Source of the DNA: Teseptimavirus T7
Strand: one strand, 5' to 3'
Sequence record: PP384397
DNA: 41,208 nt
Under the pieces are notes generated by a model, which ran no database searches, was not told the DNA's origin, and saw nothing but the letters and a program-made list of their open reading frames with translations. This document shows, in pieces, positions 5,824 through 7,166 of this stretch (the stretch's first letter is position 1; every line of letters starts with the position of its first letter). The position numbers were made by a program, and so were the translations under genes.

Positions 5824-5844
5824 CGCCAAATCAATACGACTCAC

Positions 5845-5904
5845 AAACACGTGGCAAACATTCCAAACCGGAGCCATACAGTACAAAGCACTCTTAGGCC
5901 TCTG
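5845..5904 (+). other. Synthetic 60-nt linker block of unknown origin (parses as three 20-mers)
   Basis: aaacacgtggcaaacattcc / aaaccggagccatacagtac / aaagcactcttaggcctctg; neither T7 nor recognisable vector sequence. Confidence 0.6.
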
Positions 5905-6044
5905 TACCCACGCCGAAACAAGCGCTCATGAGCCCGAAGTGGCGAGCCCGATCTTCCCCATCGGTGATGTCGGCGATATAGGCGCCAGCAACCGCACCTG
6001 TGGCGCCGGTGATGCCGGCCACGATGCGTCCGGCGTAGAGGATC
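5905..6044 (-). pseudogene. tetA: Truncated tetA fragment from pBR322-derived backbone (pET-type vector scar), antisense
   Basis: Reverse complement reads ggatcctctacgccggacgcatcgtggccggcatcaccggcgcc..., the pBR322 tet region at its BamHI site, encoding ...[42 protein letters not shown]; followed by the BglII junction gatcgagatctcgatcccgcgaaat of pET vectors. Confidence 0.75.
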
Positions 6045-6065
6045 GAGATCTCGATCCCGCGAAAT

Positions 6066-6088
6066 TAATACGACTCACTATAGGGAGA
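6066..6088 (+). promoter_or_regulatory. T7 RNAP class III consensus promoter (vector-derived phi10 copy, no lac operator)
   Basis: taatacgactcactatagggaga followed by gene-10 leader ccacaacggtttccctctagcaataattttgtttaactttaagaaggagatatacc. Confidence 0.93.
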
Positions 6089-6119
6089 CCACAACGGTTT
6101 CCCTCTAGCAATAATTTTG

Positions 6120-6144
6120 TTTAACTTTAAGAAGGAGATATACC
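6120..6144 (+). promoter_or_regulatory. Gene-10 translational leader and RBS (aaggag) with NcoI site at the start codon
   Basis: tttaactttaagaaggagatatacc directly upstream of ATG 6145; ccatgg spans the ATG. Confidence 0.85.
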
Positions 6145-6855
6145 ATGGTGAGCAAGGGCGAAGAAGATAACATGGCCATCATCAAGGAGTTCATGCGCTT
6201 CAAGGTGCACATGGAGGGCTCCGTGAACGGCCACGAGTTCGAGATCGAGGGCGAGGGCGAGGGCCGCCCCTACGAGGGCACCCAGACCGCCAAGCTGAAG
6301 GTGACCAAGGGTGGCCCCCTGCCCTTCGCCTGGGACATCCTGTCCCCTCAGTTCATGTACGGCTCCAAGGCCTACGTGAAGCACCCCGCCGACATCCCCG
6401 ACTACTTGAAGCTGTCCTTCCCCGAGGGCTTCAAGTGGGAGCGCGTGATGAACTTCGAGGACGGCGGCGTGGTGACCGTGACCCAGGACTCCTCCCTGCA
6501 GGACGGCGAGTTCATCTACAAGGTGAAGCTGCGCGGCACCAACTTCCCCTCCGACGGCCCCGTAATGCAGAAGAAGACCATGGGCTGGGAGGCCTCCTCC
6601 GAGCGGATGTACCCCGAGGACGGCGCCCTGAAGGGCGAGATCAAGCAGAGGCTGAAGCTGAAGGACGGCGGCCACTACGACGCTGAGGTCAAGACCACCT
6701 ACAAGGCCAAGAAGCCCGTGCAGCTGCCCGGCGCCTACAACGTCAACATCAAGTTGGACATCACCTCCCACAACGAGGACTACACCATCGTGGAACAGTA
6801 CGAACGCGCCGAGGGCCGCCACTCCACCGGCGGCATGGACGAGCTGTACAAGTAA
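6145..6855 (+). CDS. mCherry: mCherry red fluorescent protein (codon-optimised, GC-rich)
   Basis: ORF track 6145..6855, 236 aa [45 protein letters not shown]...[40 protein letters not shown]...[13 protein letters not shown]; M-Y-G chromophore triad; G/C at most third codon positions. Confidence 0.97.
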
Positions 6856-6906
6856 CTCGAGCGAGCTCCCGGGGGGGGTTCTCATCATCATCATCATCAT
6901 TAATAA
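6856..6906 (+). other. Untranslated linker-His6 tag (LERAPGGGS-HHHHHH) in frame with mCherry but downstream of its TAA stop
   Basis: ctcgagcgagctcccggggggggttct catcatcatcatcatcat taataa; XhoI, SacI, SmaI sites and a G8 run; reporter ORF ends at TAA 6853..6855. Confidence 0.85.
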
Positions 6907-6950
6907 AAGGGCGAATTCCAGCACACTGGCGGCCGTTACTAGTGGATCCG
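6907..6950 (+). other. Cloning-vector polylinker remnant (EcoRI, EagI, SpeI, BamHI)
   Basis: aagggcgaattccagcacactggcggccgttactagtggatccg resembles a TOPO-type cloning vector polylinker. Confidence 0.7.
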
Positions 6951-7007
6951 GCTGCTAACAAAGCCCGAAAGGAAGCTGAGTTGGCTGCTGCCACCGCTGA
7001 GCAATAA

Positions 7008-7055
7008 CTAGCATAACCCCTTGGGGCCTCTAAACGGGTCTTGAGGGGTTTTTTG
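7008..7055 (+). terminator. T7 Tphi transcription terminator (vector-derived second copy)
   Basis: ctagcataaccccttggggcctctaaacgggtcttgaggggttttttg; GC stem-loop plus T-run; same as native copy at 25434..25481. Confidence 0.9.
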
Positions 7056-7115
7056 AAAGGGGCCGTCAATATCAGAAATAAGACGACGACCCTCGAACGA
7101 TGATGCTCACTCTCG
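7056..7115 (+). other. Synthetic 60-nt linker block of unknown origin (parses as three 20-mers)
   Basis: aaaggggccgtcaatatcag / aaataagacgacgaccctcg / aacgatgatgctcactctcg; not T7, not recognised vector. Confidence 0.6.
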
Positions 7116-7126
7116 ATAGAGGGACA

Positions 7127-7166
7127 AACTCAAGGTCATTCGCAAGAGTGGCCTTTATGATTGACC
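7127..7166 (+). promoter_or_regulatory. RNase III processing hairpin R1.1
   Basis: actcaaggtcattcgcaagagtggcctttatgattgacc; conserved T7 RNase III hairpin motif. Confidence 0.6.

Follow-up and report, generated by a model that had tools for sequence, protein, structure and literature searches.

A Tphi terminator copy between mCherry and RNase III site R1.1 at the engineered gene 1 junction of phage T7_mC-g1-o

We analysed the region immediately downstream of gene 1, which encodes T7 RNA polymerase, in a 41,208-nucleotide (nt) DNA of Teseptimavirus T7 (sequence record PP384397; this whole stretch is referred to below as the window). Here an mCherry reporter cassette has been placed between gene 1 and the RNase III site R1.1, and the sequence securely identifies the region as the junction engineered into T7_mC-g1-o, one of the published PHEIGES phages (Levrier et al. 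2024, Nat Commun 15:2223; PMC10933291; GenBank PP384397). Gene 1-mCherry co-transcripts made early by the host RNA polymerase (RNAP) are expected, as judged from the sequence and from established T7 biology. The cassette also carries a complete copy of terminator Tphi upstream of R1.1, at which a substantial share of these early transcripts should end, around position 7055, leaving only read-through RNA to reach R1.1. All features described below lie on the + strand unless stated otherwise.

The identification as T7_mC-g1-o holds because cassette, insertion locus and background markers agree. The PHEIGES design places an mCherry cassette with orthogonal overhangs at a locus described as 'downstream of gene 1', and the accession table of the same paper assigns PP384397 to T7_mC-g1-o (PMC10933291). 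Apart from one extra A near 1897, positions 1..5844 of the window correspond to wild-type T7 (V01146) 1..5843; positions 7116..41208 correspond to wild-type 5845..39937 except at 23900 (wild-type 22629 + 1271), where an A-to-G change yields N227S in gene 9. The T7 stock used by the PHEIGES authors is reported to differ from V01146 by an A inserted after 1896 and by A22629G (PMC10933291), and both stock variants are present in the window. The total length is consistent as well, 39937 + 1 + 1270 giving 41208. Cassette, locus and background variants are thus all as published.

Gene 1 spans 3172..5823 as an open reading frame (ORF) of 883 amino acids, identical to wild-type gene 1 (3171..5822) and closed by a TAA stop at 5821..5823. 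The insert, 1271 base pairs (bp) long at 5845..7115, begins 21 nt past this stop and takes the place of wild-type base T5844. It matches the cassette of PP384395 ('Mutant Teseptimavirus T7 clone recombinant T7_mCg17o') at 1271/1271 positions and that of PP384393 (T7_mCg10o) over its first 1211 bases, up to Tphi. At its left end lies a 60-nt synthetic 'orthogonal' assembly linker (5845..5904), C-rich, G-poor and unmatched in T7 or vectors, the vector match starting at 5905. The following segment (5905..6065) is pET/pBR322-derived DNA, an antisense tet(C) fragment that matches expression vectors annotated tet(C). The reporter itself is headed by a consensus class III T7 promoter of the phi10 type at 6066..6088 (+1 = G6083), with 0 mismatches to TAATACGACTCACTATAGGGAGA and annotated in both PP384395 and PP384393 as 'T7 promoter added for mCherry cassette'. 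A gene 10 leader with the Shine-Dalgarno motif AAGGAG occupies 6083..6144, the interval 6060..6143 being 98.8% identical to wild-type 22881..22964. The mCherry ORF (6145..6855) encodes 236 amino acids with its own TAA stop, matches PDB mCherry chains at E = 1.9e-161 and is annotated mCherry in PP384395. Downstream come an untranslated polylinker (6856..6947) with a His6-coding remnant (catcatcatcatcatcat after the TAA), the Tphi region copy (6948..7055) and a right 60-nt synthetic 'orthogonal' assembly linker (7056..7115), which is shared with PP384395, absent from T7 and vectors, and ends in CUCUC. Since the His6 run lies beyond the mCherry TAA, the tag should be untranslated, a leftover of the source plasmid.

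The cassette does more than separate gene 1 from R1.1: it sits inside phi1.1A, a point overlooked by the first-pass annotation, which had been made from the letters alone. Wild-type phi1.1A reads CAATACGACTCAC-T-ATAGAGGGA at 5831..5853 (+1 at 5848), with 3 mismatches to the consensus. In the window, CAATACGACTCAC (5832..5844, promoter positions -17 to -5) runs at the left junction directly into AAACACG of the linker, which replaces the initiation region, and ATAGAGGGA follows CTCTCG at the right junction. Searching with the 23-bp T7 promoter consensus (-17 to +6, at most 3 mismatches), we recovered phi1.1A in wild type and no match at either junction of the window, the two halves carrying 8 and 10 mismatches. 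By this measure phi1.1A is split and destroyed. The number of promoter matches nevertheless stays at ten, one being lost with phi1.1A and one gained with the perfect cassette promoter. Promoters phi1.1B (intact; 7177..7199, +1 at 7194, wild-type +1 at 5923) and phi1.3 (7663..7685) are retained, and would cover the loss by still serving genes 1.1-1.3 for T7 RNAP.

The Tphi copy is 99% identical (99.1% over 109 nt) to wild-type 24102..24210, whose position 24210 is the annotated Tphi, and 100% identical to the vector copies. Its hairpin (7017..7048) combines a 13-bp G+C-rich stem with a 6-nt loop at a free energy of -19.7 to -24 kcal/mol and is abutted by six U residues (7049..7054), which places the termination point at about 7055, some 65 nt upstream of the R1.1 hairpin. 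Identity to the native terminator and a G+C-rich stem-loop directly before a U run both mark it as a class I site. We scored terminators with the d'Aubenton-Carafa 1990 formula and ViennaRNA energies over 400..9300. Exactly two sites reached d>0: the cassette Tphi (19.2, the highest value in this interval) and TE, the native early terminator for E. coli RNAP (7.5; 8833..8859, hairpin GGCUCACCUUCGGGUGGGCC then UUUCUGCGUUU; wild-type TE annotated at 7588, window 8859). A built-in promoter and terminator scan reported neither Tphi nor TE, so its silence is weak evidence of absence, and a hairpin-plus-T-tract scan recovered Tphi while overlooking TE, whose T-tract is interrupted.

Published work indicates that such a site acts on both polymerases. 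Class I termination, by a hairpin plus a U-tract, is common to phage and bacterial RNAPs (PMC11347151), and the T7 terminator has served as a strong positive control with bacterial RNAP (PMC9271916). E. coli RNAP is stated to terminate at T7 Tphi, 64% in a 'decomposing' mode (PMC11347151, data not shown there). For T7 RNAP the site is leaky, with termination of 62% in vivo (PMC9157156) and 54% in a single-molecule assay (PMC11347151).

The presence of Tphi bears directly on what the first-pass annotation had proposed, namely that no RNase III hairpin or host terminator intervenes between the gene 1 stop and mCherry and that early RNA, processed at R1.1, becomes a bicistronic gene 1-mCherry species with its 3′ end there. 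The first statement stands, but only up to the mCherry start; past the mCherry stop, R1.1 is preceded by a complete Tphi. The second is not supported as written, because Tphi precedes R1.1, outscores TE and is a site at which E. coli RNAP is reported to stop. With Tphi inside the early unit, the 3′ end of gene 1 RNA would no longer be set by R1.1 alone. The original proposal would require host RNAP to ignore Tphi or read almost fully through it, with essentially all early RNA cut at R1.1 into one bicistronic species ending after 7158. In its favour, R1.1 is intact and downstream, and Tphi is leaky for T7 RNAP, while an efficiency figure for E. coli RNAP was not found in the literature. We nonetheless regard it as unlikely in view of the 13-bp G+C-rich stem abutted by U6, a d-score above that of TE and the reported termination of E. 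coli RNAP at Tphi (PMC11347151).

R1.1 itself is unchanged. As the first-pass annotation had it, the reporter now precedes the site: the complete R1.1 hairpin occupies 7119..7169, its upper stem 7132..7155 (10 bp), identical to wild-type 5848..5898, and the cassette ends 4 nt before its first base. The annotation had drawn the hairpin at 7127..7166, which is correct as to its presence and slightly short at both ends. Besides this identity, the site shows the expected architecture of upper stem, asymmetric internal loop and lower stem, the last formed by GAGGG/CAA with UUG/CCUUC. Centroid and minimum free energy (MFE) folds of 7119..7169 gave -19.7 to -19.9 kcal/mol (z = -3.3 to -3.5 versus shuffles). 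An Rfam search of 1..10000 at a permissive E-value returned no matches and so speaks neither for nor against R1.1. The wild-type cut, which we take to lie at position 5887 as given by Dunn & Studier (1983), would with the offset of 1271 fall after 7158 in the window. R1.1 is described as a highly efficient RNase III site of the T7 early region (PMC3643576).

The new upstream neighbour of R1.1 could in principle disturb it. The CUCUC at the 3′ end of the right linker can pair with the GAGGG at the foot of R1.1, forming a hairpin at 7110..7123 (-4.8 kcal/mol) that competes in some predicted folds; were this to impair cleavage, uncut read-through RNAs would extend into genes 1.1-1.3. The competitor appears in the MFE fold of 7056..7185, and its stability approaches that of the lower stem, which contributes about -6.1 kcal/mol. 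With 20, 60, 64 and 100 nt of upstream context, however, the MFE structure is the native one. Lower-stem pair probabilities moved between about 0 and 0.9 with flank length in wild-type and engineered context alike. RNase III also still cuts a minimal R1.1 substrate from which the natural lower stem is missing, with an approximately 3-fold higher Km (PMC1540722). We therefore consider impaired processing at R1.1 very improbable.

In normal T7 infection, E. coli RNAP starting from A1, A2 and A3 transcribes gene 1, R1.1 and genes 1.1-1.3 as far as TE. A model of T7 entry and transcription that includes this early phase is summarised in bioRxiv 10.1101/2024.04.11.588870. Sigma-70-like sites corresponding to these promoters were found at 462-490, 589-618 and 714-742 (V01146 annotation: A1 498, A2 626, A3 750). 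The insert falls between them and TE in the same orientation, and thus inside the early unit. Between the promoters and TE, the Tphi copy (7017..7055) is now the one intervening terminator, no other site there scoring d>0.

Upstream of mCherry, the path for host RNAP appears clear. The spacer from the gene 1 stop (5823) to the mCherry ATG (6145) measures 321 nt, and within 5824..6144 we found no terminator-like site by the built-in, hairpin-plus-T-tract or d-score scans, with no near-miss in the last, and no extended inverted repeat of the RNase III type. Folding of 5824..5950 was no better than that of shuffles (z = -0.34). The earlier statement that neither an RNase III hairpin nor a host terminator separates gene 1 from mCherry is thereby borne out. 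The built-in scan detected no sigma-70-like promoter in 5824..6144 or in the cassette, so that host-driven mCherry must come from read-through. The flanking A1-A3 and TE together with the terminator-free spacer support the prediction that early host RNAP would run from gene 1 into mCherry. Since mCherry has its own strong gene 10 ribosome-binding site (RBS), early host-RNAP transcripts should both carry and express it.

Rho could interfere with this passage by loading on the untranslated spacer and stopping host RNAP before or within the reporter, in which case mCherry would be made from the T7 promoter only. The untranslated gap, 184 nt long in wild type, has grown to 321 nt, and 5824..5914 contains 25-28 C versus 12-13 G per 78 nt (C/G of about 2.1, versus 1.27 at the wild-type locus). 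An excess of C over G is a weak predictor when taken alone, however, and the stretch 5950..6090 is balanced in G+C and tends to fold (z = -1.8). We also know of no Rho-dependent stop in the wild-type early unit before TE. On balance, a Rho-dependent block ahead of the reporter seems distinctly improbable.

Collectively, these observations favour the PHEIGES T7_mC-g1-o junction with host read-through into mCherry and with early 3′ ends split between Tphi and R1.1, an explanation to which, taken as a whole, we assign a probability of roughly 0.75. The identity and positions of the parts are observed; the course of events that follows draws on the sequence and on textbook T7 biology. E. coli RNAP leaving gene 1 would cross the terminator-free spacer and transcribe mCherry, whose gene 10 RBS would permit translation. 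On meeting Tphi, the polymerase would release a sizeable fraction of the early RNA at about 7055, the Tphi hairpin forming the 3′ terminus. The read-through fraction would pass R1.1 and be cut after 7158, giving a gene 1-mCherry RNA about 100 nt longer, and transcription would go on across genes 1.1-1.3 as far as TE. Counted from RNase III site R1 (about 3139 in the window, wild-type 3138), these early species would measure about 3.9 kb when ending at Tphi and 4.0 kb when ending at R1.1, compared with about 2.75 kb for wild-type gene 1 mRNA. As T7 RNAP becomes available, far more mCherry RNA would arise from the consensus promoter at 6066, about 0.97 kb long if it ends at Tphi and about 1.08 kb if it ends at R1.1, so that the host-RNAP share would be real but minor. 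The first-pass expectation that the reporter may be expressed early by host RNAP and later from its own T7 promoter is in line with its position in the early unit, its RBS and its consensus promoter.

Several considerations weigh against this reading. Literature searches yielded no figure for how efficiently E. coli RNAP terminates at Tphi, and the source for its stopping there gives 'data not shown' (PMC11347151). The segment 5824..5914, composed of the gene 1 3′ flank and the synthetic linker, is C-rich, G-poor and crudely rut-like, so that some Rho termination before mCherry may occur. The lower-stem probability of R1.1 swings with flank length, and folding cannot tell whether processing efficiency is altered. 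Finally, the published record for this phage consists of bulk optical density (OD) and fluorescence (PMC10933291), and read-through is accordingly something we infer.

Fluorescence timing does not help to separate early from late expression. The PHEIGES paper reports that the mCherry signal 'was detected upon lysis' (PMC10933291). In the source data of its Fig. 2d, OD collapse is complete at about 1:50-2:00 h, and fluorescence emerges from the noise at about 2:05-2:10 h and then rises for hours, the wells being unmapped to phages (PMC10933291). A single-cell T7 study chose a YFP maturing in 4 min because the cycle lasts 15-20 min (bioRxiv 10.1101/2024.04.11.588870). Because mCherry matures too slowly for such a cycle and fluoresces only after lysis, a late signal cannot discriminate between early and late expression. 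We therefore rejected the Fig. 2d source data as a test of early versus late kinetics, given their unmapped wells and purely post-lysis fluorescence, and set aside the study 'A synthetic cell phage cycle', which used the gene 10 locus. As a separate observation, the three fluorescent well groups in Fig. 2d reach final values of about 45, 200 and 125 units; should the order of the figure (gene 1, gene 10, gene 17) hold for them, the gene 1 locus gives the least mCherry.

The presence of Tphi within the early unit could have a measurable effect on how genome entry and early expression are handed over, a possibility that we hold only tentatively and think doubtful. If it were true, host RNAP would halt about 17% of the way along the genome, with phi1.1B and phi1.3 yet to enter, and further DNA entry as well as expression of genes 1.1-1.3 would depend on T7 RNAP that starts at the cassette promoter and leaks past Tphi. 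Infections with T7 RNAP blocked would also show reporter signal, and the phage would thereby be an unintended probe of host-RNAP early transcription. Assembly titre is lowest at the gene 1 locus, at 5e6 versus 6e7 plaque-forming units per ml for gene 10 (PMC10933291). This low titre is compatible with a cost of Tphi placement and has many other possible causes.

For users of the reporter phage, the implications are practical and have no bearing on an open biological question. Its mCherry signal is probably not a pure T7-RNAP read-out, since host RNAP can read in. The gene 1 mRNA is predicted to be extended by about 1.2 kb on its 3′ side and to end at Tphi or R1.1, and phi1.1A is gone. Host read-through and its corollaries are an ordinary consequence of a known design.

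Two further features of the cassette concern its origin and stability. A minus-strand ORF at 5894..6022 (42 amino acids, TetA-like) belongs to the tet(C) fragment from the pBR322/pET backbone, has no evident promoter and is presumably inert. In addition, the cassette introduces second copies of 109 bp from the Tphi region (6948..7055; native copy at about 25373..25481) and of 84 bp from the phi10 promoter and leader (6060..6143; native copy at about 24152..24235). These form two direct-repeat pairs about 18 kb apart; recombination between the copies would remove essential genes, and such deletions should therefore not persist.

Set against known systems, every part of the construct is already familiar (T7 gene 1, R1.1, phi1.1A/B, TE, a pET-type cassette and mCherry), and the junction holds no new biology. 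It agrees with T7_mC-g1-o in the cassette common to the sister phages PP384395 and PP384393, in the locus and in both background variants, with no differences detected in these respects. Host-RNAP read-through into pET-type cassettes is a familiar cause of leaky plasmid expression. The present cassette resembles that type in that 5905..6148 and 6945..7055 match pET-like vectors; it differs in having no lac operator, in a promoter-to-RBS segment that follows wild-type T7 (98.8% identical) and in being embedded in a phage genome right behind the polymerase gene instead of on a plasmid. Relative to the wild-type T7 early unit (A1-A3 to TE, with RNase III sites R0.3-R1.3; Dunn & Studier 1983), the promoters, gene 1, R1.1, phi1.1B, genes 1.1-1.3 and TE keep both their sequence and their order, whereas 1271 bp have been added between gene 1 and R1.1, phi1.1A is gone, and a strong class III-type T7 promoter and the class I terminator Tphi now lie inside the unit.

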